IMG/VR virus record: IMGVR_UViG_2882613001_000002
Span: 22,773-86,772 of that record
DNA from: a virus
Taxonomy: Duplodnaviria > Caudoviricetes
DNA length: 64,000 nt
Strand: one strand, 5' to 3'
Shown here: positions 16,978 through 43,501 of the stretch, one piece after another
Layout of the letters: each line of letters begins with the position of its first letter
Numbering within the stretch: the first letter of the stretch is position 1
Program-made: the position numbers and the translations under genes
Notes under the pieces: model-generated
Database searches by the model: none
Seen by the model: the letters and a program-made list of their open reading frames with translations, nothing else
Told to the model about the DNA's origin: nothing

Positions 16978-17426
16978 CGACCCACGATCCGATCCCCGCG
17001 CGCCTGGCCGCGCTCAAGACCACATCGACGCCTGACCTAAAGGCGCAATGGCGGGAGTTGTTCGACAGCGAACCGCCGCCGTTCAATCGCCGTTACCTCG
17101 AAAGTCGCCTCGCGTACCGCATCCAGGAGCTGGCTTATGGCGGCCTGAAGCCGGAAACGGTAAAGCGGCTAGAAGCCCTTGGCGAGCAACTTGATGGCGG
17201 TGATCGCAAAAAGAGCCGCATCCGCGCTGACCTGACGCCCATCGTCGGGACGCGGTTGATCCGTGAATGGCAAGGCGTTGAACACCTCGTCACCGTCACC
17301 GCCGACGGTTTCGACTGGCAGGGTCGCCCTTATAAATCGCTGTCAGCCATTGCCTGCGCCATCACCGGTACGCGCTGGAACGGCTGGGTGTTCTTTGGCC
17401 TGAAAAACCACCGGAGGCGCGCATGA
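16974..17426 (+). CDS. DUF2924 protein
   Basis: LAYRIQELAYGGL, GTRLIREWQG and YKSLSAIA..ITGTRWNG motifs. Confidence 0.9.
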   Translation: MTTHDPIPARLAALKTTSTPDLKAQWRELFDSEPPPFNRRYLESRLAYRIQELAYGGLKPETVKRLEALGEQLDGGDRKKSRIRADLTPIVGTRLIREWQGVEHLVTVTADGFDWQGRPYKSLSAIACAITGTRWNGWVFFGLKNHRRRA

Positions 17427-19316: not shown

Positions 19317-20087
19317 GTGGCAGACGGATTCATCGCATTCGAGTTGGACCTGATGGGTGCAGTCATGAACCAGCTCATCCCCACGCTCGATGCCATGGGT
19401 AGCGCGCCGCTCACCCTAGACAACGCCCAGGCGCTTCCCGACGCCCAAGGCGTGTACCTGCTGATCCACGACGGAGAGGTCCGCTATGTCGGGAAAACCG
19501 ATGCGGAGGCTGGGCTTCGAACCCGCCTGGCTAGGCACGCGCGGAAGTTCGAGCAACGGCGAAACGTGCGGCCCGAAGATGTCCAGTTCAAGGCCGCGCG
19601 GATCCTCGTTCTGACCGCGATGGATATCGAATCCAGATTGATTGCCCACTACGGTTCGGAGTGGAACGGATCGGGCTTCGGGTCCAATGATCCAGGGCGC
19701 GAGCGCGAGACGACGAACAAGCCTGAGCAGGGCTTCGACGCGCGCTTTCCGATCGACATTGATACTCCGCATAGTTTGCTTGCGACGGGACAGACGACGG
19801 TTCACGTTGCCCTAATGGCACTGAAGGATGTGCTTCCCTACACCCTGCGCTACGAGGTTTCTTTACCACCGCCACGAACGAAGGTCGGAGGACATGACTA
19901 TCGGCTAAATCCTCACCCGGACATGCCAGCGTCGCAATTGGAGATTCCACCCGGTCCCATCTCAGTGCGAAGAGCAATGCAGCTGATCGTAGCTGCTTTG
20001 CCCGCTGGCTGGCAGGCGACCTATTTCGTGAGCCACGTGATCCTGTACAAGGAAGATCGCCAGTACGCTCACGGGGTTCAGATCTAA
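19317..20087 (+). CDS. GIY-YIG restriction endonuclease, Eco29kI-like
   Basis: GVY...YVGK, RLARH, ESRLI and WNGSGFGSNDPG motifs. Convergent with a C5 MTase. Confidence 0.75.
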   Translation: MADGFIAFELDLMGAVMNQLIPTLDAMGSAPLTLDNAQALPDAQGVYLLIHDGEVRYVGKTDAEAGLRTRLARHARKFEQRRNVRPEDVQFKAARILVLTAMDIESRLIAHYGSEWNGSGFGSNDPGRERETTNKPEQGFDARFPIDIDTPHSLLATGQTTVHVALMALKDVLPYTLRYEVSLPPPRTKVGGHDYRLNPHPDMPASQLEIPPGPISVRRAMQLIVAALPAGWQATYFVSHVILYKEDRQYAHGVQI

Positions 20088-21247
20088 GCCGCGCTGAGCT
20101 TGTCTCGAACGCCTGTGGCGACGATCCGAGCCAATTGGCACGGGACGGCGTTTCCGAGCTGCCGCATCGTCTCCGTCCACGAGCCGTGGAACACCATGTC
20201 GTCGGGGAAGGTCTGCAGGCGAGCGCTCTCTCGGATCGTGAAATAGCGCACCGAGCCATCAGGCCTGCGCAGCATGTTCTCGCCTCCAGGAACACCATGC
20301 ACGCCCGCCTTCAGTGTCTTGCCGGGCTCGTCAAGTGGGCTTCCCGTGTGCCCCGGATAGGAGCGTGCACCGGGTTGAAACCGGTGGTCATGAAAGTCCA
20401 GCGCCGTGCCGGACGCATGTTCCGGATCCGGAAGGTCGGAGATCGCGTCGCGCACGGTCAGCCACGGTTCGTCCAGAGGCCGCTCAGCTATCTTCAAGGC
20501 CCGCGCCTGCGCCGCACCACCATCCGGCCGGTTCTTGCGAGAGACGCGGTGCAGGTCCCAATAGACCTCCTCGCGCCATTGCGACCAGAGCAGCGCGTCC
20601 CGCGAGTGGGTCGGCTTCGGAAAGTGCCACTCGATCTCGGTGTCGGCACGGAACCCGACGAGGAAGATGCGCTCACGTCGCTGGGGGACACCGTAGTTCG
20701 CCGAATTCAGAACCCGCATCACCACTCGATAGTGCAGGCCCTTCTCGGTTCCCTTCGTGTGATGGTTCTCCAGGCGCGCGAGGTGTGCCAGCCATTCTTC
20801 TTCCCTCTTGGCAACAAGATCGGGATAGGTCAGCTGCAGTCGAATGTACTCGAGGTAATTCGCGAAACTGCTGCGCGTAAGCCCCTTTACGTTCTCGAAG
20901 ATGAAAGCCCTAGGTCGAAGCTCGCGCACGGCACGGATGGCCTGCGGGAACATGTCCCGGCTGTCGAGAAATGCGCGGTGGCGTCCGCCCATCGAAAAAG
21001 GTTGGCAGGGCGGTCCGCCCGTAACGAGGTCGACGGAGCCGCCTACGGTCCCAAAATCGAACTGCCGCACATCACCCTCATGAATCGGCCAGTGCGTAAT
21101 TGGATCAAGACCGCGATCTTTGTTCTCGCGGAGAGTGTCGCACGCCCATCGGTCCCAGTCCATGACGGCAGCCGGGCGGAATCCTGCTTGGCTGACGCCG
21201 ATCCCAAGCCCGCCTGCGCCCACGAACAGCTCGACCGATCTCATCAT
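20084..21247 (-). CDS. DNA cytosine-5 methyltransferase, M.Eco29kI-like (CCGCGG predicted)
   Basis: ELFVGAGG, GGPPCQPFS, ENVKG and GNAVP motifs. The TRD GARSYPGHTGS...KAGVHGVPGGENM recalls M.Eco29kI. Confidence 0.9.
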   Translation of the reverse strand: MMRSVELFVGAGGLGIGVSQAGFRPAAVMDWDRWACDTLRENKDRGLDPITHWPIHEGDVRQFDFGTVGGSVDLVTGGPPCQPFSMGGRHRAFLDSRDMFPQAIRAVRELRPRAFIFENVKGLTRSSFANYLEYIRLQLTYPDLVAKREEEWLAHLARLENHHTKGTEKGLHYRVVMRVLNSANYGVPQRRERIFLVGFRADTEIEWHFPKPTHSRDALLWSQWREEVYWDLHRVSRKNRPDGGAAQARALKIAERPLDEPWLTVRDAISDLPDPEHASGTALDFHDHRFQPGARSYPGHTGSPLDEPGKTLKAGVHGVPGGENMLRRPDGSVRYFTIRESARLQTFPDDMVFHGSWTETMRQLGNAVPCQLARIVATGVRDKLSAA

Positions 21248-21660
21248 CCCAGGAACTCCCCGATCCTTGCCTGCAATTCCTCTCGGTTTTTTGTTTGGCA
21301 TTCCCATATCACGAGGACGTCCCAACCGAGTTCTGCGAGCAGGACGATATTACGCTCGTCCCGTTTCCTATTTGTTTCCAGCTTCGGGCCCCAAAAGTCC
21401 AGCCTGGATTTCGGGAGTCTCGCCAGCGGGCACGCCGGATCTGGGTGTCGGTGCCAAAAACAGCCGTGCACGAAGATTACCTTTCTTCGAGCCGGAAAGA
21501 CTAGGTCAGGCTTCCCGGGCAGGTCATGACGATGAAGCCTGTAGCGATAGCCCATACCGTGGACCAGGCGGCGCACCAGCAGCTCCGGCTTGGTGTCACG
21601 GCCGCGGACCCGGCTCATGCGCTCGCTTCGCTGTTCTGGCGTCAGTGTATCCACGCGCAT
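21244..21660 (-). CDS. vsr: Very short patch repair endonuclease
   Basis: RSERMSRVRGRDTKPE, PGKPDLVF, FVHGCFWHRH and VIWEC motifs. Confidence 0.95.
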   Translation of the reverse strand: MRVDTLTPEQRSERMSRVRGRDTKPELLVRRLVHGMGYRYRLHRHDLPGKPDLVFPARRKVIFVHGCFWHRHPDPACPLARLPKSRLDFWGPKLETNRKRDERNIVLLAELGWDVLVIWECQTKNREELQARIGEFLG

Positions 21661-21715
21661 CCTTATAATGGCACGCAGAGTGGACCGACAAGAAGAACTT
21701 CCGAACTCATACTAG

Positions 21716-22237
21716 TTAGTCCAACCAAATCAGGCGCTTGATGCCAATTTTGTCCGCCGCGCTTTCGACGACTGCGCGCTGGGTTGCCATCCCGAACTTT
21801 GCTGAAGATTCGGTCAGCACAGCTGCAAAAGGCTCGCTATTCTCGAAAGCACGCTCATGCAGGGCCATCAACGTTGCCTTCCAGTCAGCTGCCTTGCTCC
21901 AAGCGATCTGGCGCCCATCGGGGAGAAGGCAGCCGTGCGGTTTAATGAAAGTCGCGCTGACCTCTGCACCCTCGTCAATCCCGAGCACCCGGAATACGCG
22001 CGCGGGGTTGGCTGAGGCCTCCCTAGTGTATGACTTGAGGAGCGTATCCTTGATATAAACGCGAACTTTTCGCGGGTCCATGTACTGACCCAGCCTTCCG
22101 CCAATACTCTCCGTCTCGGTCCACACCGAGTAGTAACGCGACTTATCGGTAGCCGAAAGCGCCGACCAATTGAGCCGATCAGCTTCTGCCCACAGGTGCT
22201 CCTTGATCTCGCTTCGAACGCTCACGGGCACCCTCAT
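21716..22237 (-). CDS. Hypothetical protein in the MORC/helicase operon
   Basis: 173-aa ORF whose start overlaps the helicase stop. Confidence 0.75.
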   Translation of the reverse strand: MRVPVSVRSEIKEHLWAEADRLNWSALSATDKSRYYSVWTETESIGGRLGQYMDPRKVRVYIKDTLLKSYTREASANPARVFRVLGIDEGAEVSATFIKPHGCLLPDGRQIAWSKAADWKATLMALHERAFENSEPFAAVLTESSAKFGMATQRAVVESAADKIGIKRLIWLD

Positions 22238-23907
22238 TGCACGCCTCCCGGCTGGGGTGCGGCTGGAAACTCAAACTGCGGAACTTCTAACTGCGCGTCA
22301 CCCTCGCGCAAAATCAAATCCGCCTGATCCTTCATCCATTCGAGCATGAAATTTCCTGCCGATGCGTCGCGGAAATTGATGAGATTGTGTCCGAGAGGCA
22401 GCCGCTCGACAGGACCCGCAGCGGCCTTTTCAAGTTCGATCACTTCCGCCACTCGACGCAGATCGGTCACGAAATCCATCACGATTACCTTGTCTTTACC
22501 GTGGCTCAGGCGAAGCCCCCGGCCAAGCTGCTGGACAAAGATCCGACGGCTATGCGTCGCGCGCATGAAGACAATTAGATCAACATCAGGCACGTCAACG
22601 CCTTCGTTAAACAAATCAACACTGGACAATACATCGATGTCCCCTCGTCGGAACATTGCCATAAGTCGATCGCGCTCGCGGGCTTCCTGCCTCGACGAAA
22701 TAGATTCAGCGCGCAATCCGTAACCACGAAGTGTTCCCGCGAAACTCTCAGCGTGATCAACCGTTGGAGAGAACACAATCCCACCCCGCCGCTTCTCGCT
22801 GCGGAAAGCCTCGACAATGTGCCTGGCCGCCTCATCGTCGCGAGTTGGCATCAAAAGCTTCCTGTTCAGTTGGTTTAGAGAATAGTTGTGCGAAGAGATT
22901 TCCTGTACAAACTCCCAGTCGACGTTGTCTGCCAACAGCCGATAATCGACCTCGCAAAGGTATTTCTGCCTCAGGCCGTCTGAGATACCGAGCCGAACAA
23001 GCGGCTTGCCCAATAGCTCATCGATGTCGAAACCATCGCCGCGCCACGGCGTTGCCGTTGCTCCACCGACCATAGGTGGCTCAAGAGCAGCGAGCGCACG
23101 CCGAAAACTAGCGGATCCGATATGATGCGCCTCATCGACAAGCACCAAGCCAAAATTTGGCAAATCATCGACACGTCCAATGATGCTTTGGACCGTCGCG
23201 AAAGTGATTCCATCGTAGAAAGATGGGGTCTCATCGCCCGAAAGCATATGCGTTGGAACCCACTTGGGCAGCTGATGCCAAAATCCGAATTGTAGCTGTC
23301 GAATGAGCTCACGTTTGTCGGCGAGAACGAGCACCCGGTTTTCGCGAATGAGGCCATCACGATAAAGATCCGCAACAACTTCCGCCATTACCACGGTCTT
23401 GCCTAAACCCGTTGCAAGCACGACTTGAGCGCGACCCGTGTCCGTGAGGCCTTCGCGAAATCTATCGACTGCCTCTTGCTGATATGGCCTTAGATCCCTT
23501 CTCGACTTAGGGTACTCGGGGACTTCTTGAGCAAGGTGCGCAAGACGAGCTGGATCGAGTAATTCGACATTGATCCCTATCCGGCGGAAACGTTCGATTT
23601 CGGCTAGGACTCCACCACCGACCGCGCGTGAAGTCGCCAGAAGCATACGGTTGGCACCATAGTATGTTCCGGCATCGACAACTTCTTGGACGGCATGTTT
23701 CGTGGGCGGGGCGGTCGTGGTGTGTTTGCACTGCACAACCCAAATCTCACCGTTTTTCACGCCAACGACATCTGCGCCTTTGTCGCCCGAACCACCAACA
23801 ACGCGCACATCATCGAAGCCTGCATGCATCAAAATTCTTGCAACATCGCGCTCAAACGCTTGCCATGGGCCACGTAGGAGTCGCCTGTCGTCAAGAAAGT
23901 GCGTCAT
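22234..23907 (-). CDS. Mrr-like restriction endonuclease fused to an SF2 helicase
   Basis: N-terminal FERDVA...GDKGADVV...VQCK, then LATGLGKT, DEAHH, TATP, NEGVDVP and QQLGRGLR motifs. Confidence 0.85.
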   Translation of the reverse strand: MTHFLDDRRLLRGPWQAFERDVARILMHAGFDDVRVVGGSGDKGADVVGVKNGEIWVVQCKHTTTAPPTKHAVQEVVDAGTYYGANRMLLATSRAVGGGVLAEIERFRRIGINVELLDPARLAHLAQEVPEYPKSRRDLRPYQQEAVDRFREGLTDTGRAQVVLATGLGKTVVMAEVVADLYRDGLIRENRVLVLADKRELIRQLQFGFWHQLPKWVPTHMLSGDETPSFYDGITFATVQSIIGRVDDLPNFGLVLVDEAHHIGSASFRRALAALEPPMVGGATATPWRGDGFDIDELLGKPLVRLGISDGLRQKYLCEVDYRLLADNVDWEFVQEISSHNYSLNQLNRKLLMPTRDDEAARHIVEAFRSEKRRGGIVFSPTVDHAESFAGTLRGYGLRAESISSRQEARERDRLMAMFRRGDIDVLSSVDLFNEGVDVPDVDLIVFMRATHSRRIFVQQLGRGLRLSHGKDKVIVMDFVTDLRRVAEVIELEKAAAGPVERLPLGHNLINFRDASAGNFMLEWMKDQADLILREGDAQLEVPQFEFPAAPQPGGVQ

Positions 23908-26297
23908 GCAGAGATCTCAACATCTGGTTTCAATAGCTCCAGAGACATTACAGCCCGAATGACCTCACTCCGTGAACTGCTGGCAAGATCTCCGCTGTCT
24001 TGCTTGGAGAGCCAAACAGCGTCGTCAATTAGAGCAAGATAACGCGACAAGACACCAGCGCGTGCTTCTGCGGTGATTTGCGGGTCGCCGTAATCGAGGT
24101 CAGCGTAAGGGGAATCCCAAAGCTTGCCATCGAAGCATAGGTCCGGCCGTTTCTCAACGGCAATTCGAACAATTTCGAGTGGCCCAGAAAGAAGGAAACT
24201 ACCATTCACCGTGGCCTCGGAAGGCTTGATTTTTTTTGCTGCCAACGCGCGCATAACCGCAGTCTGCTCATCCACGCCTAAGTCATTGAACAGAGAAGCG
24301 CGTTCCTCCTCAGGACAAACCGAAACAAGACAACGAGCCACATCAACTAGAACCGACGTGGCAGTATTGGGCAATGCCTTTAGGTCAAGAGCCGTCTCTT
24401 CCCCATAGGCGTCCCGAAAATCCGCGAATAATTGAGCAAAGTCGGGCTGTTGGCTAGAGTTGCGAGTCTGATCCGCAGTCATGTAAGCGAGATGCGCTAG
24501 GAGCGCGTCCCTTGGTGTCATTGTGATTGATTCAAAGGTTTTGTGTGCAGGATTGAAAAGAAAATGATGGGTCTTCGTCGTCACGTCACCCATAATCATG
24601 GCCCACGGAGCATCTCCCGCTAAATCGGGGTCCTTGGAGTCGACCTCATATGCGACGACATTCCATTTCATGCCAGTACCGTCATGTTGATACCGGCGAC
24701 TAAGGAGTGGCGCTTCTCGACGCTCCGGTGCTGCGGCCTTCTCTGGCTCGGGAGGCGTTGCCGGATCTGGATCAGGCGTATCGCCGCCGGATGTTGCGCC
24801 GCCGAGGAGGCCTGGCGGAAGTTGTGCATCGCCACCAGATGTCGGTTCCTTGCCCCCAGTTGCTCGTCCGCCGGCGCCGTAGAGCAACTCACGGTCAGCG
24901 GCCTCAACGAGCTCCCACCATTTACTGTCGTCCTGATAGTCAGGATTGCCATCGTGGAAGGCATTGACCATTTCGACGGCGCGAGCGTTGTCCTTGACGA
25001 TCAAAATTCGTCCGTAGGCGCCTGCAGTCTTGGAGTGAGGACTCGTCCGTCGGAAAGCTTTAAAAAGTCGAAAGAGCGGTGATTCATTTGGGCCATAGCC
25101 AAGATCTTTAGCTTTTTCAGGACGAAGCGGCCCCTCTCCTCGGATGACTCTATACATTTCATCCCATGTCGGATCTGCACGATCAAAACGATCTTTAGCA
25201 TAGCTGACCCGGCAATGATCAATGTGGATCTCACCAACTATGCGGCCTCGGTTTCGCTGATCGTCAATCGGGTACTCCCGCTCTTCATTTTCCCCATCGC
25301 TCCAGGAAAAAAGGTCCTTGTTCCCAATCTCAATTTTTCGCCCATTGCGAACAAAATCGATACCGAACTCGGACTGGTCGAGATATCTCTGAATTCCCAG
25401 CCACCCCGTAACCTTGCGTTTACGTTCGACTACAGACTTAGCGGTTTCGCAATTCGGACATGTTCCGCCCACTTCCGCATCTACGAGCCAACTCATGCAA
25501 TTGATGCAGTACAATCTGGCTGCGAGTTCATGATTGATACTGATAACTGCCGGAATATTTGTTCCACCGGGCCCGGGAACAACCCGATCTTCATTCCACA
25601 GGCAATGACGTCGCGCCTCGACGCGCTTGTGGTTCACATAGAGCTCGAAACTGATTGGAATTCCGTTCGGCCGAAGCATCGAAGAGTAAGCTTGCGAGAG
25701 CCGTTTGCGTATTGCCGTTTGATTCGCGTTTTTTGCGAGCCATTTTCTTTGCTCTGGCTTGAGTTGCTTGATCGTAATCTCGGTACCATGTTGATCGGGA
25801 TCGGCCTTTGCGCGCGACAAACGCGGCGTCCGAAAGTGACGCTGCAGACGCAACTTGTCGAAATCGATCAGGAGTCCGTGCCACTCACGCTCACCCTTAC
25901 GCGTAGTCCAAACTTCGGTGACCGAACCAAGACGAGCCGTGGCGATGTTGAAGCCCATGCCAAACAGCCCAAGGCTATCGATTGGATTATTGCCTGACCA
26001 ACCGGCGCGTACGGCGCGTTCCAGCATATCTGGTGTCATGCCGGGACCATTATCGATAATCCGAAGTGTCGCTCCAGGTGAGTCCGCTTGCGGCAAGTGG
26101 ACATCGACCTTTGCACCAGCGACCGAGTTTCCAGCACGTCCTTCTTTCAAAAAGCCGTCAACTGCGTTGTCGACGAGTTCTGCAACGCAGCGCCACTGAT
26201 CGATGTTGATCTCGCCGAGCATCGGCAATACGCGCGGATCAGGCTCGAGATTGAATTCGCTCGCCGGCCGCAGATCGTTCACATTGATGCTCGCCAT
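23904..26297 (-). CDS. GHKL ATPase, prokaryotic MORC-like
   Basis: ELVDNAVD, DNGPGM, GLFGMGF and HGT boxes. CxxC...CxxC insert, GIDFVRNGRKI / IVGEIHID S5-like region, Pro/Gly linker and an unknown C-terminal domain. Confidence 0.85.
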   Translation of the reverse strand: MASINVNDLRPASEFNLEPDPRVLPMLGEINIDQWRCVAELVDNAVDGFLKEGRAGNSVAGAKVDVHLPQADSPGATLRIIDNGPGMTPDMLERAVRAGWSGNNPIDSLGLFGMGFNIATARLGSVTEVWTTRKGEREWHGLLIDFDKLRLQRHFRTPRLSRAKADPDQHGTEITIKQLKPEQRKWLAKNANQTAIRKRLSQAYSSMLRPNGIPISFELYVNHKRVEARRHCLWNEDRVVPGPGGTNIPAVISINHELAARLYCINCMSWLVDAEVGGTCPNCETAKSVVERKRKVTGWLGIQRYLDQSEFGIDFVRNGRKIEIGNKDLFSWSDGENEEREYPIDDQRNRGRIVGEIHIDHCRVSYAKDRFDRADPTWDEMYRVIRGEGPLRPEKAKDLGYGPNESPLFRLFKAFRRTSPHSKTAGAYGRILIVKDNARAVEMVNAFHDGNPDYQDDSKWWELVEAADRELLYGAGGRATGGKEPTSGGDAQLPPGLLGGATSGGDTPDPDPATPPEPEKAAAPERREAPLLSRRYQHDGTGMKWNVVAYEVDSKDPDLAGDAPWAMIMGDVTTKTHHFLFNPAHKTFESITMTPRDALLAHLAYMTADQTRNSSQQPDFAQLFADFRDAYGEETALDLKALPNTATSVLVDVARCLVSVCPEEERASLFNDLGVDEQTAVMRALAAKKIKPSEATVNGSFLLSGPLEIVRIAVEKRPDLCFDGKLWDSPYADLDYGDPQITAEARAGVLSRYLALIDDAVWLSKQDSGDLASSSRSEVIRAVMSLELLKPDVEISA

Positions 26298-27513: not shown

Positions 27514-27804
27514 TTTATGTTACGGCACCTCACATAATCTGCAGGACATTCATCTCTATCCGTCAGCACCTCGCGCGCGTTCAGGTTCTCACGCCCTACA
27601 GGCGTCGATGGGCTGCTTGAGCGAAATTCGACATTCGATCATTTGCCTCTTTACTGCGCAGCGCCAGCAGACCGGGCGGAGAGCAGAAGTTCGCTGCAAT
27701 GCAGCCGAAAGACTGGATGTTTCACCAAAGCGGACATTTAGGCTTCCTCTTGAAAGCGTATCGTAGAAAGCAGATACTCAATCGACAGATGAGGTTGAGC
27801 GATA

Positions 27805-28881
27805 GTGTTTCATGCGAGTGAGGATAGTCTAGACGACCTATTGAGGGCCGTTTTCAAGCAGCTGCTCACAGGGCGCGGGAATTTTGAAGTCGAATCCAGC
27901 AAAGGTAGAAGCACTGAGGTCTTCGGTGCGCTCTTAGAGCTCAAGAACCCGCGCGCGCGACTAAGCAGATCGTTTTCGAAAGCTAAAGCCTTTAGTCCAC
28001 TTGGCGAGTTGTTTTGGTACTTGGCGGGCAGCGATAGCGTCGATTTCATCAAACACTACATCCCCAACTATCCAAAACTGATAAAAGACGAAGTTACTGC
28101 AAATGGGGCCTACGGACCGCGAATATTCGGAAAAGGGGCACTAGAAAAGCGTGACGAAGTTAGCGAGTGGGATCGGGTGATCCGTACTTTGCGTGAGCGA
28201 GAGGGCTCGCGCAACGCAATAATACAGATTTACGCTAACTCCGATGCTAGGCCCGAGAACGGCGACAAGCCTTGTACCTGCACCATTCAATTTGCGGTTA
28301 GGAATGGGCAGTTGTTGATGCACACGCATATGCGGTCCAATGACGCATTCTTCGGCCTCCCGCACGACATTTTCACTTTTACTATGCTTCAGGAGGTTGC
28401 GGCTCGTGAACTTGGGTTTGGGCTGGGTAAGTATACCCATTCTGTGACAAGCCTACACTTGTACCATGACTATGCGGCAACTGAGGGTCGCCCAGCGAAC
28501 ACTTCAACATCTGGCGCCAAAGCGTACTACAGGGAGGGTTTCCATGATTTCTCGCCAATGCCTGAAATGCCATCAGGAGACCCATGGCCGAGCATAGAAA
28601 AGGTAAAAATGGCAGAGCAAGAAATCCGATCTGGCAACATCGAGTACATCGCTCCAACAGACCTTGATCCGTACTGGCGCGACTTCATTGAGCTTTTCAG
28701 AATCCACAAAATATTTGAGGAAATGAAGAAGCGCGGAGATGGCCTTAGAACCGAGAGGCCCGAGCTGCGCAGAGTTGTGAAGGTCATGAAAGAAACTTCA
28801 CCGACCTATCGGATCTACATCCTCGGTAGGCTCGAAAGAAAACAATCCCCCGTTAGGGATCTATTTGAGAATGTAAGTTGA
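27805..28881 (+). CDS. Thymidylate-synthase-fold enzyme, predicted cytosine-nucleotide (hydroxy)methylase
   Basis: ELFWY, YGPRI, catalytic PC (C157), RSND and SLHLY motifs. GLPHD places Asp188 where ThyA has Asn. Confidence 0.85.
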   Translation: MFHASEDSLDDLLRAVFKQLLTGRGNFEVESSKGRSTEVFGALLELKNPRARLSRSFSKAKAFSPLGELFWYLAGSDSVDFIKHYIPNYPKLIKDEVTANGAYGPRIFGKGALEKRDEVSEWDRVIRTLREREGSRNAIIQIYANSDARPENGDKPCTCTIQFAVRNGQLLMHTHMRSNDAFFGLPHDIFTFTMLQEVAARELGFGLGKYTHSVTSLHLYHDYAATEGRPANTSTSGAKAYYREGFHDFSPMPEMPSGDPWPSIEKVKMAEQEIRSGNIEYIAPTDLDPYWRDFIELFRIHKIFEEMKKRGDGLRTERPELRRVVKVMKETSPTYRIYILGRLERKQSPVRDLFENVS

Positions 28882-28891
28882 GAGGTGGGTC

Positions 28892-29830
28892 ATGAACGGT
28901 GTCCACAAAGACAGAATAGACGAGTTCCTCGGAAAGATTGGCCAGATTGACGCGCAATTTGGCCCACTCCCCAGTATTGCAACAGCCCAGCGGAGACGTT
29001 GCTGGGCGCAACAAATCGTGTCCAGCCTACGTCGAATTTCATATACAGACACGTTGTTGATGCGTAGAGTGAATGCGGCGAGGTGTGATCCGCATTCCGG
29101 TATTTTCGACCCGGTACGAGGGGCGCTTCACTTTCAGAGAAGCGGACAACTCGATGAAGCGGTCTGGTTAACTTTCGTCCTCACCCATTTTGGAAAACAC
29201 GCGGTAGATGAATGGAAGCTGGCTGCAAATGTCTATGGTTCGTTTAGCGTGGGACCAGTTTGGACGTTCGCACAGTATACTGCAGACCGTGCAGGGTTCG
29301 AGAACATGTTGGCCGCAAACTCTGGCCGGTTGGCGGACGCCAACATTTCGGGTAGTTTTTCTAACCACCGCAAATTTCAGAGCAAGAAACATCAAGCCAT
29401 AGCGAAGACGTTTCGCACGTACTATGAGTGGCAGACTGAGTTCGGCGGATTTCGTGATCGAATGATCGCGACACATGCAAGTTTCGGTCAGGAACCCGAA
29501 GCGGCTTTCGATGCTCTCTACAAGTCCATGAAGGGGGTTTTTGGCTTCGGTGGAGGACGCCTCGGAAGGTTCGATTTCCTTACGATGCTCGGCAAACTTC
29601 AGCTTGCTCCGATTACACCAGGCAGCGTCTACTTGGATAAGGCAACAGGACCTCTTGCAGGGGCACGGCTTCTGTTTTTCGGTGATCGCGACCATCACAT
29701 TACCGGTAGAGCCTTGGAGCCTCACGTTGATGCCTTGGACGGGGTTCTTGGCGTGGGAAAACAGGTGATCGAAGACAGCCTTTGCAATTGGCAAAAAAGC
29801 CCTGATGTTTACGAGTATTTCCGAGGTTGA
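28892..29830 (+). CDS. aGPT-PPlase clade 3-like protein (HhH glycosylase superfamily)
   Basis: FDPVRGA, EAVWL..THFG, NHRKFQS, GRFDFLTMLGKL, TGPLAGARLLF and EDSLCNWQKSP motifs, recalled as that family's pattern. Lies 10 nt after the TS-like gene. Confidence 0.65.
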   Translation: MNGVHKDRIDEFLGKIGQIDAQFGPLPSIATAQRRRCWAQQIVSSLRRISYTDTLLMRRVNAARCDPHSGIFDPVRGALHFQRSGQLDEAVWLTFVLTHFGKHAVDEWKLAANVYGSFSVGPVWTFAQYTADRAGFENMLAANSGRLADANISGSFSNHRKFQSKKHQAIAKTFRTYYEWQTEFGGFRDRMIATHASFGQEPEAAFDALYKSMKGVFGFGGGRLGRFDFLTMLGKLQLAPITPGSVYLDKATGPLAGARLLFFGDRDHHITGRALEPHVDALDGVLGVGKQVIEDSLCNWQKSPDVYEYFRG

Positions 29831-30936
29831 GAAGGGACCGGCAGTTTAGTGCTCCCTTCCCATTTGTAACGGCGCTTTAGATCATTAAATTGGTGGGGCT
29901 GGAGCGCCCCAGCTTTTTGAAGCTGTCCGACAATAATTCCCGGTGTGACCCCGGCTTTTCGAGCGATTCTCCGTACATGAGGACGGGTCGGCATTGCGTT
30001 TAACATCTCATCTCGCAAGTCAGCCGAAACAAGCGTATCTTGAGCGAAAATGTCAGCTTCGCCTTCGAATACAGACGCTCCTAGCGGTGACGGATCAGCG
30101 CCATCCACCGAAATGTGGTCAGTGCCATGCAGAACCACGTGTGCGGCCTCGTGGAAAAAAGTGAACCAAAAATGGTCTTCACTTAAATAGCGAAAGCTTA
30201 GCAAGATAATCGGGTTGCCGTTTGGGGATGTCCAAGTGGCACCGCTTGCTCTACAACCTTTCGGGGCCTTCGAGCTTACCAGGCCAACACCTTCCTCAGC
30301 GCAAGCTTGCTGCAGTTTTGGAAAGAATAACTCCGGGCGCTTGAGCGCACATAGCTTCTTCAACTCAGTCAGACGTTTCTTGAAATTGCTCGCGGAAAAC
30401 TTCGCCAAGGTCAGGTTTTCAGCTTGCATCTCTCCGATACGCAGCCAGGCCAAAGTCGCCATCTCGTCGGCCTCAAAGGCAAAAGATGTTCGAAATGCAA
30501 CTTGGCCTATCCCAGCGGAGTACCGCTGGTTCCAACCGCTGATGCTATCGCATCCAAAAAAGTTCAGGATGTCCTCGGATAGACGCTCACCGCGAGAGCC
30601 TTTCGGCAGCCAACCGAGTTCTCGGAGGGCTCGAACTGGAAACGACTGCCCCCACCTAGACAACTCTTCGGTTGGCGCAGAACCTGCAAGCCGCGCTCTA
30701 TCTCCCAGAAACTGGTTATAGCGTTCAATCCAGAACTGGCGTGATGCACCAAGCTCCGAAGATAGGGCGTCTGCGATTTCTTCGGAAATCACAACGCGCC
30801 CTTCCATTATTCCAGAAAACAAGTCTTCTTCGAACCCGATGCGTTCGGCCAAATCGTGAATTGATTTTTTTCCAGCCGCAGCCAGCCTTGCGATTGTGTC
30901 GCCCGGTGGGGAAGCCCAGTTTGGTTCAAACATCAA
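29809..30936 (-). CDS. HTH plus ImmA/IrrE metallopeptidase (HigA-like antidote fusion)
   Basis: SPPGDTI..., SRQFWI HigA-type HTH and WFTFFHEAAH (HExxH). Confidence 0.85.
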   Translation of the reverse strand: MMFEPNWASPPGDTIARLAAAGKKSIHDLAERIGFEEDLFSGIMEGRVVISEEIADALSSELGASRQFWIERYNQFLGDRARLAGSAPTEELSRWGQSFPVRALRELGWLPKGSRGERLSEDILNFFGCDSISGWNQRYSAGIGQVAFRTSFAFEADEMATLAWLRIGEMQAENLTLAKFSASNFKKRLTELKKLCALKRPELFFPKLQQACAEEGVGLVSSKAPKGCRASGATWTSPNGNPIILLSFRYLSEDHFWFTFFHEAAHVVLHGTDHISVDGADPSPLGASVFEGEADIFAQDTLVSADLRDEMLNAMPTRPHVRRIARKAGVTPGIIVGQLQKAGALQPHQFNDLKRRYKWEGSTKLPVPSQPRKYS

Positions 30937-31283
30937 GCAAACACCTCCCCTTCAATTACGATAGCTTTCAGGTGGATTCGATGAGCATCTTTCCACGCTT
31001 CGTCTCCAACGCCGGATGCAGCTATCACCGTCTTCAGTGTGCAGCCAGTGGATACGAACCAGTCCAGCTCAAAGGTGCCTTCTACTTTCGTCGCCGAAAG
31101 CGGTCCCATAGGTACGTCACCGGCAAAGAACGCCGCCCTGAAATCCGCCACCAAACCAATGAACGCCTGACCGTCCTCACTTCCGAGGTGACGGTAGGCT
31201 TTCTTGCGTTCTGTTGCCAAGTCCCTCATGAGCTTGCTCGAAAAAGTCGGTTCCAAGGATCCAGCATCCCAAAAGTTGCACAA
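30933..31283 (-). CDS. HigB/RelE-like small protein (start may be TTG 31256)
   Basis: A..LG.....ADFRAA...D...G and W...RI.L..I pattern. Overlaps the start of the HTH-ImmA gene. Confidence 0.55.
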   Translation of the reverse strand: MCNFWDAGSLEPTFSSKLMRDLATERKKAYRHLGSEDGQAFIGLVADFRAAFFAGDVPMGPLSATKVEGTFELDWFVSTGCTLKTVIAASGVGDEAWKDAHRIHLKAIVIEGEVFA

Positions 31284-31820
31284 AATGGAGCCTTGGAAGG
31301 CACGTCGCTTACAATATCTTCCCAGCAGTCATACATGCAGCGGGTGTAGCGGGCGTGGTCGCGAAAGTCACTAGCGAACTGTCGTGCGGATAGGACCCGC
31401 TGGCAACATCTGCCACACTGATCTGTTTGGGAACGATGCGCAGAGTGGCTCAATGCCGATGCTGACCAAGGAAAGGGGCTCGATGCGCGAGCGCCTCCGG
31501 ATGTACCTGATGGACTATCAGCTCTATGCGGGCCTCTTCAGTTGCAGGGCGTGCCGCGCTTCCTTCTCGGCGGCTGTATCCTTCACCCTGTACAAGGCGC
31601 GCGAGGTTTCTGCGCCGTCGCCAATTCTGGGTAATGCTGCGCAGTGTCTATACGACTGCTATAGAGGAGCTGGAGCGCAGCATTATGATCCTCCGCGAAG
31701 GTCAGCTCTGGGCCGGTCGTGTCGTTCAGCCACGATAAGGCTCTGCCGATCAGCGCACCCGCTCCCTGTGTATTCGGAGCGTGTCGTCAAGTTAGGCGGG
31801 GCGTTTCCGCCCCGCTCAAG

Positions 31821-33200: not shown

Positions 33201-33518
33201 TCAGGGCGGTCGGTCCAGGAGCGTCGCTGCCGCCGCGACCAGACAGCCCGCGATCAGCCAGATCGCCTTGTCGAGCGCGCGAAAGAAGATCCCGCGTCCG
33301 ATGCTGAGACGTTCCAGCAGCACCACTTTCTCCGTGAGGATCGCCTGATCGTGCTCATGCTTGCGGGCCAGCAGGCCCTGGTCCCGGTCATAGCGCTCCA
33401 TCCGCTTGAACAGCGTCACCAGCTGTTCCTGCATCCGGGCCTGCTGGACCACCACGTCAGACAGCTTGTCGAGCGTCTGTTCGATCCGTTCCAGCCTCTG
33501 CTGATCTGACATGCACAT
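33201..33518 (-). CDS. Coiled-coil protein with a C-terminal TM segment
   Basis: MSDQQRLERIEQTLDKL...AIWLIAGCLVAAAATLL. Confidence 0.65.
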   Translation of the reverse strand: MCMSDQQRLERIEQTLDKLSDVVVQQARMQEQLVTLFKRMERYDRDQGLLARKHEHDQAILTEKVVLLERLSIGRGIFFRALDKAIWLIAGCLVAAAATLLDRPP

Positions 33519-33565
33519 GCCCCCAAGTGTCTGCTGAGTGTCTGCCCCCCTGCCCCGAACGGCTG

Positions 33566-33991
33566 TCAGGCAATGCCGGGGCGCATGAGTGTGGCCTGCA
33601 CGGTGAGGCTTGAACCATCCTCCCCGCTGGATTGATACGCGGGCCGCGCGGCGACCTCGGTATAGGCCTGCCAATCGTCAGGTCGGGACTGCACGTCGGC
33701 ATAGACCGCATCTACCGTATCGAGACCCGTGTAGGGCGCGCGGCCGAGGACCCGAACACCTTCAAGTGTTTCCCATGCGGGCACCTCATCTTCCCGCAAG
33801 TGAACGTAGCAGATGAAGGCCTCGCCGCCTGGCTGGTAGACAGCGGGCGTTCGCGCAAGACCGACGACCCGCGGTGTTTCGAACCCGTTTTCGTCGCTGG
33901 GAAGGGCCACGTATTGGGGCATGGAAGAGAGGAGACCCGCGAGGAAGGTGGCTTCGTTTTCGCCGCGCACGAGAGCTGCTGTGAGGGTCAT
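33566..33991 (-). CDS. Hypothetical protein coupled to the fibre gene
   Basis: 141-aa ORF overlapping the stop of 33988..35232. Confidence 0.65.
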   Translation of the reverse strand: MTLTAALVRGENEATFLAGLLSSMPQYVALPSDENGFETPRVVGLARTPAVYQPGGEAFICYVHLREDEVPAWETLEGVRVLGRAPYTGLDTVDAVYADVQSRPDDWQAYTEVAARPAYQSSGEDGSSLTVQATLMRPGIA

Positions 33992-35232
33992 TGGGCAGTC
34001 CTCGCCTTCATGGCTTCAACTGGCACGGAGGCAGGATAAAGACCAAGCCCCAAGACGCTCGTGTTCCGGACAGATAACTGACCGGGGAACGCATCTGCAA
34101 TCCGCAGCGTGGTGGGAGCTGCGTATCCTGACGGGACGTTGGCGTCCCATAGGGTGCCGTTGAGGACGAGCGACAGGTTGCCCGGAGAGAAGCGGCACGC
34201 TATCGAATACTCTGCGGGTAGGCTATAAGGGCTGACAGCAGAAGCGTAGCCCCCACTATAGAACTGACGTGCTTGAGTGCTGGAGCCAGATAGCACCGTA
34301 ATGAGACGGTTGACCTCTTCGGACCCTCCGTCGAGCTCGAACAACCTGTCACCCGAGAGTAATTCACCCCACAAGAGCCCGTCCAGAACGAGCCAAAGCC
34401 CATCGTCCAGGTCAAACTCGGATATGTCTGAGAGCGGGTGGTCACCGGCGCGAGTAACTGCCCCACTGGTCGTGTCGATGTAAGAGGACGCCGCGTTGTT
34501 TTCTTCCAGCTGGGCACCCCACACCGCCACCGAACCGTAGGAAGCTGGAACTCCGATGAACGATCTGTGTGGGTAAACACGCACGTTCTCGCATCCCTCG
34601 GGTACTACAAAGGTGCACGCCACGCGTGCCCACCCGTTAGCCAACGTCTGCGTTACGTATGCGTCAGATACAACGGGATGGACAATGAAGGACGCGTCGG
34701 TGTTGTTGTACACAGCCAGATAGTTGATCGAAGTCCCTTTCTTGACGTAGTAGCTGAACGTAAGGGTCGTCCCAGCTACCACAGACAGGGATTGTTGATA
34801 CAGGATGCCGGTGGAAGACCCGGTTACATTCAGGCTATCCGCCAGTGTAACGCCATCAGGGGAGACAACCGAATTAGGGGTCACGGTCATGCCGTTAGCC
34901 TTTTCCCATATATCGTTGGTGTAGTCCTTAGAGTACAGCACAGTGTTGGTAGCGGTATTCTCGACCAAAAGGCGGCGCTTTCCAGTCCGCCAGTCGAACC
35001 TGGGCTCGTTGATAGGAGCTGTACCTACAGTCAAATCCTCGGCCACGTACCGAGCAGCCCCGGCTCGCGTGAACGAGAGGTTCTTGAACTGCGTGACCGG
35101 CTGTCCGTTACGAGCATATCGTCCATTCTCGAAGTCGGCGTACCACAAGGGGGCCACGCCGTTGATGGCGCCAAACCCGTTTCGCAGCGCGGTCATCCCG
35201 AAGTTATTCGCGGCGAAGAGCATCAGACCCAT
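33988..35232 (-). CDS. Head-spike fibre-like protein (RcGTA Rcc01080-like) with a carbohydrate-binding-type domain
   Basis: FTRAGAA...PRFD...LLVENTATN, GWARV and WGAQLEE motifs; follows a spike-base gene. Confidence 0.65.
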   Translation of the reverse strand: MGLMLFAANNFGMTALRNGFGAINGVAPLWYADFENGRYARNGQPVTQFKNLSFTRAGAARYVAEDLTVGTAPINEPRFDWRTGKRRLLVENTATNTVLYSKDYTNDIWEKANGMTVTPNSVVSPDGVTLADSLNVTGSSTGILYQQSLSVVAGTTLTFSYYVKKGTSINYLAVYNNTDASFIVHPVVSDAYVTQTLANGWARVACTFVVPEGCENVRVYPHRSFIGVPASYGSVAVWGAQLEENNAASSYIDTTSGAVTRAGDHPLSDISEFDLDDGLWLVLDGLLWGELLSGDRLFELDGGSEEVNRLITVLSGSSTQARQFYSGGYASAVSPYSLPAEYSIACRFSPGNLSLVLNGTLWDANVPSGYAAPTTLRIADAFPGQLSVRNTSVLGLGLYPASVPVEAMKARTAQ

Positions 35233-35480
35233 CCCACGACAGTGGCAGTCGTGCCCGTGGCCTCGATGCCGACCGGCGAGAAGTAGATCGTTTCACAGGC
35301 GAGCACGGTCAGTGTGACCACAACGCCATTAATGTCGCGCATCGAGAGATCGCCCCCCGTCAGCACGCGGAGCATGCGAGGCCGGTCCGGGAGATCAACG
35401 CCGTCTGCAGGCACGATCAGGAAGTGCTGTTGCGCCGGGCTTTCGAGACCGCGCGCATAGGTGCGATACTGGTCAGTCAT
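35223..35480 (-). CDS. Head-spike base protein (RcGTA Rcc01079-like)
   Basis: LESPA....PADGVDL...R.L....GD......G..VT......ATGTTA pattern. Confidence 0.7.
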   Translation of the reverse strand: MTDQYRTYARGLESPAQQHFLIVPADGVDLPDRPRMLRVLTGGDLSMRDINGVVVTLTVLACETIYFSPVGIEATGTTATVVGWV

Positions 35481-35580
35481 GGGGGCACCCGCGAGGGGTC
35501 GAGGCCCGCATGCAGAGGGCAAAGGTGTCGGACATGGAGATCTCCTGGTTTGGTCAGTGACGTGGGGGGCGGATCGCGCG

Positions 35581-36198
35581 TCAGGCGGCTTCCAGTGCGG
35601 CGATCCGATCTGTCAGGGCGATGATCGCGGCATTGAGATCGGCCATCGTGGGCCGATCTGTGCGGTACCAGAGGCCGGCACTGCCCTGCCCGCCCCAGCC
35701 GGGGATCCAGATGTGGACCCCGGAGCGCGGGACCAGCACCCCGTTATAACCGGTCGGGGTTGCCTGGTTCTTGGTACCGACCGCAGCGGGTCCGACCTCG
35801 AAGGCCTGGTAGATGAAGGCGCCGACCTCATAGACCAGTCCGCTCGCACCATCGTCCCATTGCTCGACATACCCGGCGACCCGCTGCGCATTTTCGCTGG
35901 CGGCGACGGAGATGTCTCGCGCCGCTTCCGCCGCCACCCGCGCGGCAACGGCGATCCCCTTTGAGGAATCTGCACCCTGCCGGGCAAACTGGGCGGCACC
36001 GCTGGCCTCATTTGTCTGCGTCAGCGTCGCGGACATCTCCCCCAGGGCAGCAGCAATCTCGGTGGCCATCGCTGCCAGCTGCGGCGCGCCGGTGGCGGTG
36101 AACCACTCGAACAGCGCCTGGGCGCGCGGTGAGAAGGTCGCCGGGTCACCCTCGGAGGGTAGCAGTCCCTCAAAGGGGGTAAACTCGGGAACGGGCAT
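35581..36198 (-). CDS. Putative tail protein
   Basis: Follows the tail genes; P...DPATFSPRA N-terminus. Confidence 0.55.
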   Translation of the reverse strand: MPVPEFTPFEGLLPSEGDPATFSPRAQALFEWFTATGAPQLAAMATEIAAALGEMSATLTQTNEASGAAQFARQGADSSKGIAVAARVAAEAARDISVAASENAQRVAGYVEQWDDGASGLVYEVGAFIYQAFEVGPAAVGTKNQATPTGYNGVLVPRSGVHIWIPGWGGQGSAGLWYRTDRPTMADLNAAIIALTDRIAALEAA

Positions 36199-37151
36199 CA
36201 GGCCACTCCTGTGATGGTGAAGGAATATTCGTACTCATCCGGCAGATCCTCGCCCCACTTGACGGGCCCGAGGATGCCGAACTGCACGCTGGAGGCGCGC
36301 GTGGGGGAGCCGATGGCGGCCACCAGAGACCCGGAGTTGCGGTCCAGCTCGGGCTTGATCTGATCCCAGAGGGCTTTCGAGGCGACGACGCGATAATCCA
36401 TCTCGACCCGCGTCGGCCCCTTGGCCAGCGTCAGACTGCCATAGTCGTTGAAGCTGTAGCGGCTACCGCTGATCGAGCGTCCTTCGGTGCTGCCCACCTG
36501 CGCCGCGCCAATCGAGAGGCTGGCGCCCAGGAACAGCTCGCCCAAACTCACCCGACTGCCCCGCAGCGCCACGATCACGCGGCGTGTCGTACCCGGAATA
36601 TCCAGCACCACCAGCTTGTCGGAATAGGCCCCGAAGGGGGTGGAGAACCAGGCCCACCAGTCCCGCACCTGCCGACCGGACAAGTTGGTGTCCCGGTCCA
36701 GCAGCACCTTGTCGTTGATGTCGAGACAGATCAGCCGGGCGCTGCTGGCCCGCACCCCGAACAGGATCAGCGTATCGACCCCCGACAGCCCCGGCATGTC
36801 GAGGATGATCGGTGCACTCGCCGGATCAATCCCGAAGCTGGGATCGAGCCAGGGCACCTCGGCGTCGGGTTCCTCGAAGGCCACCGTGGCATTGCTCAGC
36901 ACCCCGTCGAAGCAGGCAAAGGCGTTGGTGTAGCGATCAAACACCCAGCGTGCCGCCACCACCGACTGATCCTCGACCAGCGGATCGAGGCCGAGGTTGT
37001 CCGGGATCGCCGACTGATAGATCCGGTGATCGCGCACCACCCGCGCGTTGAGCGGATAGGTCACGCCCGCAGCCCACGCCGGGGCATCCTCCTCGGGGAT
37101 CGAACAGCGCACCTGCCCCAGGTCCGGAGCAAACTTGCGTGAGATGAACAT
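36198..37151 (-). CDS. Putative tail-tip protein
   Basis: Directly after the tape measure gene; beta-rich. Confidence 0.6.
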   Translation of the reverse strand: MFISRKFAPDLGQVRCSIPEEDAPAWAAGVTYPLNARVVRDHRIYQSAIPDNLGLDPLVEDQSVVAARWVFDRYTNAFACFDGVLSNATVAFEEPDAEVPWLDPSFGIDPASAPIILDMPGLSGVDTLILFGVRASSARLICLDINDKVLLDRDTNLSGRQVRDWWAWFSTPFGAYSDKLVVLDIPGTTRRVIVALRGSRVSLGELFLGASLSIGAAQVGSTEGRSISGSRYSFNDYGSLTLAKGPTRVEMDYRVVASKALWDQIKPELDRNSGSLVAAIGSPTRASSVQFGILGPVKWGEDLPDEYEYSFTITGVA

Positions 37152-37154
37152 GGC

Positions 37155-40442: not shown

Positions 40443-40445
40443 GGA

Positions 40446-40823
40446 TCAGGCTCCTTTCTGCTTGGCGGCCTGCCGTTGCGCGACCCGGCCCGCGAAGTAG
40501 GCGCTCAGCTCGGCGTCGCTCGATCCACGATGGCGACGGCCATCGAGGAACGCGGTGGGTTTGGGGAACTGTTTCGGGGCATGGGTGGCGATCATCATCA
40601 GCTGGCCGAGGCTGTAGATCTCGCCCCGGCGCTGCCGCATCGCACGCTCCTGCCCGAGCAAGACCCCGGACAGGATCAGATCGACTTCCCGCAACGTCAG
40701 CCGCCCGAACAGCGCATAGGACTGTCCGGCGGCGATCCATTGGCGGATCAGCTCTTGCCAGTCGATACCGGTTCGGCTTTGGCCCTGGCGGGGGGATCGG
40801 CCTTCTCGGCCTGCGGCTTTCCC
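40446..40823 (-). CDS. Tail assembly chaperone C-terminal extension (GT-like, reached by -1 frameshift)
   Basis: The -1 frame opens at G GGA AAG (40817-40823) and runs through ...LTLREVDLIL... up to the TMP gene. Confidence 0.7.
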   Translation of the reverse strand, partial: GKAAGREGRSPRQGQSRTGIDWQELIRQWIAAGQSYALFGRLTLREVDLILSGVLLGQERAMRQRRGEIYSLGQLMMIATHAPKQFPKPTAFLDGRRHRGSSDAELSAYFAGRVAQRQAAKQKGA

Positions 40824-41167: not shown

Positions 41168-41232
41168 GTCGGGATCCTTTCAGGGCGCGTGGGGCGTCAT
41201 GCCGCCACGGCAACAAAGAGATCGCCGCCGCA

Positions 41233-41652: not shown

Positions 41653-41687
41653 GGAGTTTCCTTTCTGTGATGTGGTGTGGTGTTGGA

Positions 41688-42921: not shown

Positions 42922-42922
42922 C

Positions 42923-43492: not shown

Positions 43493-43501
43493 GGCGCGCC
43501 C

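Follow-up and report, generated by a model that had tools for sequence, protein, structure and literature searches.

A predicted cytosine deoxynucleotide hydroxymethylase annotated as thymidylate synthase probably heads a mobile four-gene cassette

A stretch of 64,000 nucleotides from a Caudoviricetes virus record (IMG/VR IMGVR_UViG_2882613001_000002, positions 22,773 to 86,772; this whole stretch is called the window below) carries at 27805..28881, on the plus strand, an open reading frame (ORF) encoding a thymidylate synthase (TS)-like protein. Judged by its active-site residues, this protein is almost certainly a cytosine-specific, deoxyribose-type C5-hydroxymethylase and not a ThyA, a methylase or a 5-hydroxylase. 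By analogy with characterised enzymes, we consider it probable that this cytosine deoxynucleotide C5-hydroxymethylase heads a mobile cassette together with an amino-acid:DNA-transferase (AADT)-like enzyme and a sensor/switch that joins an XRE-type helix-turn-helix (HTH) to an M78 peptidase (XRE-M78). The enzyme families are already named and the cytosine-type signature is textbook knowledge; the new part is the cassette as a combination. For the whole cassette (hydroxymethylase, kinase-free clade-3 AADT-like enzyme and XRE-M78), no published characterisation was found in the literature. Gene structure, residue signatures, fold, conservation and mobility are what the analysis shows.

The TS-like protein carries a cytosine-type active site

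The ORF translates without a stop into 358 amino acids (aa), and its start codon is backed by 12 of 12 related loci, which have GTG, TTG or ATG at that place and a conserved TTT next to it. The product matches the thymidylate-synthase fold family of Pfam (PF00303, 8e-21, over the gathering threshold) and is predicted to be a deoxycytidine monophosphate (dCMP) 5-hydroxymethylase from this match, a match to MilA, its residue signature and the invariance of key positions. To position its active site, we used a MAFFT alignment of the TS-like protein with E. coli ThyA, the host-type ThyA from a carrier genome and T4 gp42. In this alignment RSNDAFFGLPHD of the TS-like protein pairs with RSCDVFLGLPFN of ThyA, which bears out the first-pass annotation of the ORF in placing Asp188 (codon 28366..28368, plus strand), the cytosine-specificity residue, at the position of ThyA Asn177; the equivalents are Asp179 in T4 gp42 and Asp186 in MilA. 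The same annotation had claimed that the catalytic Cys157, the Glu of ELFWY and the HxY motif are kept, and the alignment agrees: Cys157 falls on ThyA Cys146, Glu68 (in GELFWY) on Glu58, His218 on His207 and Tyr220 on Tyr209, the last two being ribose-binding residues.

The key residues of the enzyme, Glu68, Arg136, Asn137, Asp154, Cys157, Thr158, Arg177, Ser178, Asp180, Asp188, His218 and Tyr220, form the 12-position signature E-R-N-D-C-T-R-S-D-D-H-Y. The signature of T4 gp42, a dCMP hydroxymethylase, is E-R-R-D-C-T-R-S-D-D-H-Y and hence equal at 11 of the 12 diagnostic positions, that of ThyA is E-R-R-L-C-H-R-S-D-N-H-Y, and the deoxyuridine monophosphate (dUMP) hydroxymethylases M6 gp58 and Montesquieu have Asp at 143, Asn at 147 and Asn at 177. 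In the cytidine monophosphate (CMP) 5-hydroxymethylase MilA, the place of ThyA Asn177 is taken by Asp186; Asp is associated with cytosine substrates and Asn with uracil (PMC5175136). Ribose preference resides in MilA Ala176 and Lys133, where deoxyribose enzymes have Ser and Arg, and the A176S/K133R variant of MilA loses CMP activity and keeps dCMP activity (PMC5175136); the TS-like protein has the deoxyribose-type Ser178 and Arg136 and not the ribose-type pair. ThyA Leu143 keeps water out, and Asp or Glu stands there in 5-hydroxymethyl-dCMP (5hm-dCMP) synthases and in MilA (PMC13326640); the TS-like protein has Asp154 at this position and Thr158 at that of ThyA His147. A change of Asp169 to Asn is diagnostic of 5-hydroxy-dCMP (5hodCMP) synthases, all tested members of which have Asn (PMC13326640; 2026 study), and the TS-like protein keeps the aspartate as Asp180, so that this change, of the RB69 gp48 type, was not found.

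All residue features of a T4 gp42-type dCMP 5-hydroxymethylase were therefore present, namely the catalytic residues, Asp188, an acidic residue at the Leu143 position, a retained Asp169 and the Ser/Arg pair. Across full-length homologues with as little as 49% identity, Asp188, Asp154, Asp180, Ser178, Arg136 and the catalytic residues are unchanged in 117 of 117, and thus the residue pattern is not due to chance. Cassette copies of other phyla, at 33-39% identity, retain the active-site residues as well, with Glu at the ThyA Leu143 position in the distant copies. The first-pass annotation had offered dCMP or CMP as substrate and methylation or hydroxymethylation as reaction; the residue markers (PMC5175136, PMC13326640) narrow this choice and point to dCMP and hydroxymethylation.

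The closest solved relative of the protein is MilA (5b6d, 5jnh; E 1e-43 over residues 36-321), while the best true thymidylate synthase among solved structures reaches E 1.6e-14. Since the phmmer alignment to MilA spans residues 36-321, the C-terminal extension of the TS-like protein is homologous to the helical C-terminal domain of MilA (helices alpha9-alpha13). Such an extension had been noted earlier at roughly 100 aa; it is real and comprises about 130 aa (residues ~225-358). A Rathayibacter plasmid copy of the enzyme (L031, 3689-4468; 259 aa) has lost most of the MilA-like C-terminal domain and kept the full active-site signature. In a maximum-likelihood tree of ThyA, cassette enzymes and T4 gp42, from which MilA was left out and which has long-branch problems, ThyA formed a clade of its own with 100/100 support and the cassette enzymes lay on one side of a branch with 61/71 support. 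The branch of T4 gp42 is too long for reliable placement.

The cassette enzyme is not the thymidylate synthase of its carriers

The TS-like protein does not reach the ThyA equivalog level of NCBIfam: it remains far under the cut-offs of all seven TS models, the best of which, NF002497, gives 68.7 bits vs a required 327, and it passes only the general Pfam fold model. The short C-terminal tail of ThyA that closes over the folate is missing from the protein, which has the MilA-like domain of ~130 aa in its place. We searched four genomes with close cassette copies, standing in for the genome of the window itself, for ThyA and ThyX. Besides the cassette protein, which scores 70-78 bits, three of the four encode a full-length ThyA at 388-423 bits, and ThyX (194 bits) is present in the fourth; in the four carrier genomes examined, the cassette protein is not the cell's source of deoxythymidine monophosphate (dTMP). 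The equivalog scores, the MilA match and Asp/Asp/Thr at the Asn177/Leu143/His147 positions support the first-pass view of a cytosine-nucleotide enzyme other than ThyA.

Public records name the protein thymidylate synthase, and the annotation pipeline PGAP adds the Gene Ontology term 'dTMP biosynthetic process', just the mis-annotation that had been foreseen. That it is a genuine, divergent thymidylate synthase, as these annotations unanimously say and as the Pfam TS domain over its gathering threshold would allow, we regard as scarcely credible in view of the low equivalog score, the three replaced ThyA residues and the separate ThyA clade. Moreover, the carriers own ThyA or ThyX, and the distribution of the gene is rare, patchy and mobile.

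The gene belongs to a mobile four-gene cassette

By blastn, homology of the window to 12 related loci starts at 27739-27801 and ends at 31269-31632, and the four-gene cassette was placed at 27740..31632 (no strand assigned). Beyond these limits the flanks are unrelated and the neighbours differ per locus, comprising integrases, resolvases, restriction-modification genes and housekeeping genes. Because homology ends at these limits and the flanks differ in every locus, we describe the unit as a mobile cassette of 3.6-3.9 kb. The TS-like gene is followed after 10 nt by the gene of the AADT-like enzyme (28892..29830, plus strand, 312 aa), and the opposite strand carries the XRE-M78 gene (29809..30936, 375 aa) and a gene for a small protein (30933..31256, 107 aa).

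Among 13 loci retrieved from one-genome-per-species contigs, the TS-like, AADT-like and XRE-M78 genes were detected in 12, including a Bacteroidota metagenome-assembled genome (MAG) at 39% identity, and all four genes together in 11. The exceptions are L007, which keeps a truncated pair only, and L013, without a detectable small gene. In L007 (Meridianimarinicoccus aquatilis, 5947-7892) the AADT-like gene is truncated to 267 aa and the XRE-M78 and small genes are gone, leaving a decayed cassette; in L013 (a Chitinophagaceae MAG) the cassette genes look frameshifted. In an even sample of 400 genomes of the phylum, just 3 contained the partner family PF18746 (aGPT-Pplase3), and, approached through this family, two of three independent hits in the phylum sample show the same four-gene architecture at 33-38% identity. 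In addition, the cassette was found on ten plasmids, five of them conjugative, of Pseudomonadota, Actinomycetota and Spirochaetota, and altogether it recurs in four phyla. Gene order and orientation on the Rathayibacter and Leptospira plasmids are the same as in the window.

An extra gene of ~268 aa without Pfam match lies between the two enzyme genes in the Leptospira plasmid and Bacteroidota copies, giving a five-gene variant (L032, 3663-4466, Leptospira interrogans plasmid; L013, 6966-7775, the Chitinophagaceae MAG). A candidate fifth gene in the window (orf75, 31226-31453, minus strand) gave tblastn matches, but its frame is closed in most loci and we read its conservation as that of promoter DNA. 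No tRNA gene was found in the window, so no tRNA-linked attachment site can be shown beside the cassette. One of 59 flanking ORFs of the loci L001-L012 (the locus was not identified) matches the Pfam family TAGT (TET-associated glycosyltransferase) at 1.4e-28. TAGT proteins are linked to glycosylation of 5-hydroxymethylcytosine (5hmC) in phages.

The partner enzyme resembles amino-acid:DNA transferases

The second gene encodes a clade-3 aGPT-Pplase/AADT-like enzyme that matches Pfam PF18746 at 6e-85 and the ADDT family PF18724 at 9e-80. The ADDT match spans the full model, and the protein scores 268 bits vs 160 bits for M6 gp51, a biochemically validated glycine:DNA transferase (PMC8989533). 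An AlphaFold (AF2) model built from 28 homologues has a predicted local distance difference test (pLDDT) of 91.7. The best structural match of this model by VIA-align among 48,161 representative chains was the 5-phosphomethyldeoxyuridine (5-PmdU) glycinyltransferase gp46 of PaMx11 (8z2m; Z 8.7, 222 residues, root-mean-square deviation 4.7), followed by helix-hairpin-helix DNA glycosylases with Z 6-8.5.

The motif E294-D-S-L-C298-N-W-Q-K is invariant in the AADT-like family, aligns to E243-T-V-L-C247-K-W of M6 gp51 and has the same spacing as Glu243/Cys247 of gp46. In a comparison of the family profile with M6 gp51, hhalign aligned only this 16-residue catalytic motif, and a home-built hidden Markov model gave a weak alignment of 94 residues. 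Both gp46 and gp51 depend on this Glu and on the Cys, which serves as the nucleophile towards C6 of the pyrimidine (PMC8989533; PMC11472151). The partner thus shows three hallmarks of AADTs, that is the Pfam ADDT domain, a gp46-like two-helix-bundle fold (with moderate Z) and the Glu/Cys pair. A tblastn search (E 1e-3) of 50,697 cultured phage genomes found no relative of the protein, nor did a search of PHROGs, and the PDB chain sequences gave no match with either a single sequence or a profile.

The control pair and the regulatory DNA

The third gene (29809..30936, minus strand) encodes an XRE-type HTH joined to an M78 (ImmA/IrrE) metallopeptidase with the motif HEAAH, as identified by Pfam (Peptidase_M78, 9e-8; HTH_31, 1.6e-4) and by PADLOC, where the protein matches PD-Lambda-2_B at 2.9e-27. 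The gene is kept in 12 of the 13 loci. It runs towards the AADT-like gene, with which it shares 22 nt at the 3' end (29809-29830). Because this overlap is kept in related loci, convergent transcription could link one half of the cassette to the other; in L001, for example, the overlap lies at 8006-8027.

The small gene (30933..31256, minus strand) has a TTG start and at its stop shares 4 nt with the start of the XRE-M78 gene; its product begins with MEPTFSSK. Of 12 close loci, 11 encode the protein at 52-97% identity, and a gene of the same position and size occurs in L028, L029 and the Rathayibacter and Leptospira plasmids. It matched no Pfam or PADLOC family. Its AF2 model (pLDDT 67) shows helices followed by a four- to five-stranded beta-sheet, with Z 3.8 to RelE and Z 3.2 to YafQ, and a HigB-like Atlas cluster scores 0.89; as a lead only, these matches suggest that the protein is possibly RelE/HigB-like.

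Upstream of the TS-like gene, a consensus scan gave a promoter-like site, TTGAAA-17-GATACT (27750..27778, plus strand), which is not significant alone; its CTTGAA element is conserved at the same place in related loci. An alignment of 12 loci revealed an inverted repeat with the consensus TTCAACC-N9-GGTTGAA (27776..27800, plus strand), which overlaps a GAGG ribosome-binding site. In these loci 86% of the cells are paired vs 18-47% with the partner slid. The 6-bp core hardly varies, and the covariation signal is modest in that 12 of 500 shuffles reach the observed level. The repeat could be an operator of the XRE protein or an RNA hairpin masking the ribosome-binding site. No operator shared by the two promoter regions of the cassette was found, the TTCAACC palindrome lying solely upstream of the TS-like gene.

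Proposed function and its weighing

From these features we infer the substrate and product of both enzymes, control by XRE-M78 and an anti-phage or other conflict role. The TS-like enzyme would convert dCMP, methylene-tetrahydrofolate and water to 5hm-dCMP. The AADT-like enzyme would most likely derivatise the 5hmC provided by the first enzyme, in DNA or at the nucleotide level; with its Glu/Cys pair, as the phage transferases do, it would displace the leaving group of a 5-(hydroxy/phospho)methylpyrimidine through attack on C6. The 107-aa protein and the XRE-HTH/M78 peptidase would most likely serve as sensor and switch. We favour, by analogy, an inducible conflict system because of the mobile and patchy spread, the defence-island neighbours, the homology to a defence component and the toxin-antitoxin-like organisation.

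Several observations weigh against this proposal. The Z of 8.7 to gp46 is moderate and reachable by chance among helical proteins, and Foldseek of the AADT-like model against the PDB returned nothing at E <= 0.001. An invariant Asp295 takes the place of gp46 Thr244, which helps to hold the metal on thymine O4 (PMC11472151), and the glycine-binding Trp146 and Lys150 correspond to Leu224 and the invariant Asp228 in a weak profile alignment (E 0.02). Since the glycine-binding Trp/Lys and Thr244 appear replaced, the chemistry of the second enzyme may differ from that of phage AADTs. The conserved unit has no 5-HMUDK kinase (M6 has gp54 and gp55), and all characterised AADT pathways need a 5-hydroxymethyldeoxyuridine (5-hmdU) DNA kinase to create the leaving group (PMC8989533). 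A deoxynucleoside monophosphate (dNMP) kinase is not in the cassette either, so that there is no obvious route of 5hm-dCMP into DNA. As for the first enzyme, Arg127 of ThyA binds the phosphate from the partner subunit; the alphaproteobacterial clade uniformly has Asn137 at this position, other cassette copies have Gln, Lys or Arg, and phosphate binding may therefore differ; moreover, the substrate and product of the whole clade are assigned by residue analogy. Furthermore, a divergent aGPT-Pplase3 homologue (L030, 1651-2559; 28% identity) is solitary among housekeeping-type genes, next to a beta-lactamase-family gene and a dicarboxylate symporter and with no TS-like or XRE-M78 neighbour, and thus not every clade-3 member belongs to a cassette.

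C5-cytosine methyltransferases can attach thiols to 5hmC that has not been phosphorylated beforehand, which makes a kinase-free route chemically conceivable by analogy. For the AADT-like enzyme we infer related C6-thiol chemistry on a 5-hydroxymethylpyrimidine, plausibly 5hmC because its partner is a cytosine-type hydroxymethylase, with a different co-substrate. A more specific version of the conflict system, possible though doubtful, is a kinase-independent cytosine hypermodification used as an inducible weapon: Cys298 would form an exocyclic methylene on 5hmC and couple a non-carboxylate nucleophile, and the poisoned nucleotide or DNA lesion would block phage replication after XRE-M78 trips. 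A nucleophile other than an amino-acid carboxylate is suggested since Asp228 and Asp295 replace the Lys and Thr of the phage enzymes. If true, this would be the first cytosine-directed AADT.

The location of the cassette, immediately past the tail-gene end of a structural module (~33.5-50 kb) in the window, and the fact that both enzyme families are best known from phage DNA hypermodification would fit a prophage cargo with which the phage makes 5hmC and a hypermodified cytosine in its own DNA in lytic growth and evades host restriction as a counter-defence. We find this unlikely, given that the AADT-like protein has no relatives in the phage genomes or PHROGs, that the cassette also resides on plasmids and chromosomal islands with non-phage flanks, that no dNMP kinase, dCTPase or phage polymerase lies alongside, and that the unit carries its own toxin-antitoxin-like XRE-M78 module, kin of a defence component. 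A MilA/BcmA-type CMP hydroxymethylase feeding a nucleoside antibiotic or antimetabolite pathway is quite unlikely. Among solved structures MilA is clearly the nearest relative and has the C-terminal helical domain too, and the distant copy L029 has Lys at the MilA Lys133 position; however, the invariant Ser178 and Arg136 are of the deoxyribose type, which in MilA (A176S/K133R) abolishes CMP activity, the conserved unit holds no MilB/BcmB N-glycosidase or other biosynthetic gene, and the conserved partner comes from a DNA-acting enzyme family.

That the enzyme would be a dCMP methylase or a 5hodCMP synthase is very unlikely in our view, although the ThyA mutants N177D and N229D are dCMP methylases (references cited in PMC13326640) and MilA-like TS homologues of the alphaproteobacterial phage RL38J1 make 5hodCMP (PMC13326640). 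As in T4 gp42 and MilA, it has an Asp (Asp154) at the water-excluding Leu143 position, and it retains Asp180 where 5hodCMP synthases have Asn. It also lacks the folate-closing tail of ThyA, and the chemistry of the partner requires that the C5 methyl carbon bear a leaving group.

Genomic surroundings of the cassette

The cassette lies in a stretch of low G+C content (51-56% vs ~65%). On one side it is preceded by a serine recombinase (17423-18733) and a cluster (19317-26297) in which an Eco29kI-like nuclease (19317-20087) is convergent to the other genes: a C5 cytosine methyltransferase (20084-21325), co-oriented with a 173-aa unknown protein, an Mrr_cat and SF2 helicase protein (22234-23907; PADLOC type IV mREase, 4e-36) and a MORC-like GHKL ATPase (23904-26297). 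A candidate modification-dependent nuclease is hence encoded 4 kb from the predicted 5hmC-making enzyme. On the other side lies the tail end of a prophage structural module (33500-50200, minus strand) with the large terminase subunit (48520-50187), portal (47240-48523), major head protein (43978-45321), tape measure (37155-40442) and a tail protein (33988-35232). Phage replication genes, encoding a primase/helicase, a helicase and a ParB-methyltransferase, occupy 2-10.4 kb of the window.

Comparison with known systems

T4 gp42 (EC 2.1.2.8) shares with the TS-like protein the TS fold, Asp/Asp/Thr at the Asn177/Leu143/His147 positions and the deoxyribose Ser and Arg. The two are 24% identical; gp42, with 246 aa, is without the C-terminal helical domain and has Arg at the Asn137 position. 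Its setting is a lytic phage with dNMP kinase, dCTPase and glucosyltransferases, whereas that of the cassette is a bacterial mobile element. MilA, of the mildiomycin pathway, has the C-terminal helical domain and Asp at both the Asn177 and Leu143 positions in common with the cassette enzyme but differs by its ribose markers Ala176/Lys133, its MilB-type N-glycosidase partner and its antibiotic gene cluster, none of which is seen in the cassette of the window.

The same two enzyme families are paired in the thymidine hypermodification of phages (M6, PaMx11, ViI, PhiW-14), which proceeds from a dUMP hydroxymethylase through a 5-hmdU DNA kinase to a clade-2 aGPT-Pplase/AADT, and the Glu/Cys motif and gp46 fold are common to the cassette partner. 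In contrast, the phage hydroxymethylases have Asn where the cassette enzyme has Asp188, the phage AADTs belong to clade 2 and the cassette partner to clade 3, and in place of 5-HMUDK the cassette, in its bacterial setting, has an XRE-M78 switch.

Three proteins make up the defence system PD-lambda-2, namely a HigB-like toxin, an Xre-peptidase and a P4-antitoxin-like protein (Vassallo et al. 2022, PMC9519451). Its component B is matched by the cassette XRE-M78 protein (2.9e-27), the gene of which is overlapped by the small upstream gene by 4 nt in a toxin-antitoxin-like manner, but the effector genes of the cassette are two nucleotide- or DNA-modifying enzymes. Membership in PD-lambda-2 was rejected, as only B matches: PADLOC gave no match to A or C for any cassette protein, and there is no third such gene. 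Among the DefensePredictor results (PMC13092281), Fig. 6F and S12A list an aGPT-Pplase and HTH system as a predicted, unvalidated defence, which, by its domain families, is probably this cassette or a close relative. A different system, consisting of a TS, a dNMP kinase and a 5-hmdU kinase, was validated (PMC13092281); it has the kinases that the cassette is without.

Implications

Hundreds of database entries, those of RefSeq included, call this protein thymidylate synthase, and metabolic reconstructions are distorted by it. Membership in a four-gene cassette changes the biological meaning of the TS-like gene. Phages use TS-like hydroxymethylases and AADTs to hypermodify thymine and evade restriction; in the cassette, the same families appear retuned to cytosine and free of the kinase step, joined to a toxin-antitoxin-like switch on a small mobile element that occurs on chromosomes, in prophages and on plasmids of at least four phyla. 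If the cassette is a defence system, it would represent a new effector logic, in which cytosine nucleotides or DNA are modified on demand, and would provide the first biochemical function for clade-3 aGPT-Pplases. If instead the DNA of the carrier itself is modified, the cassette would make a new bacterial epigenetic or hypermodified base.

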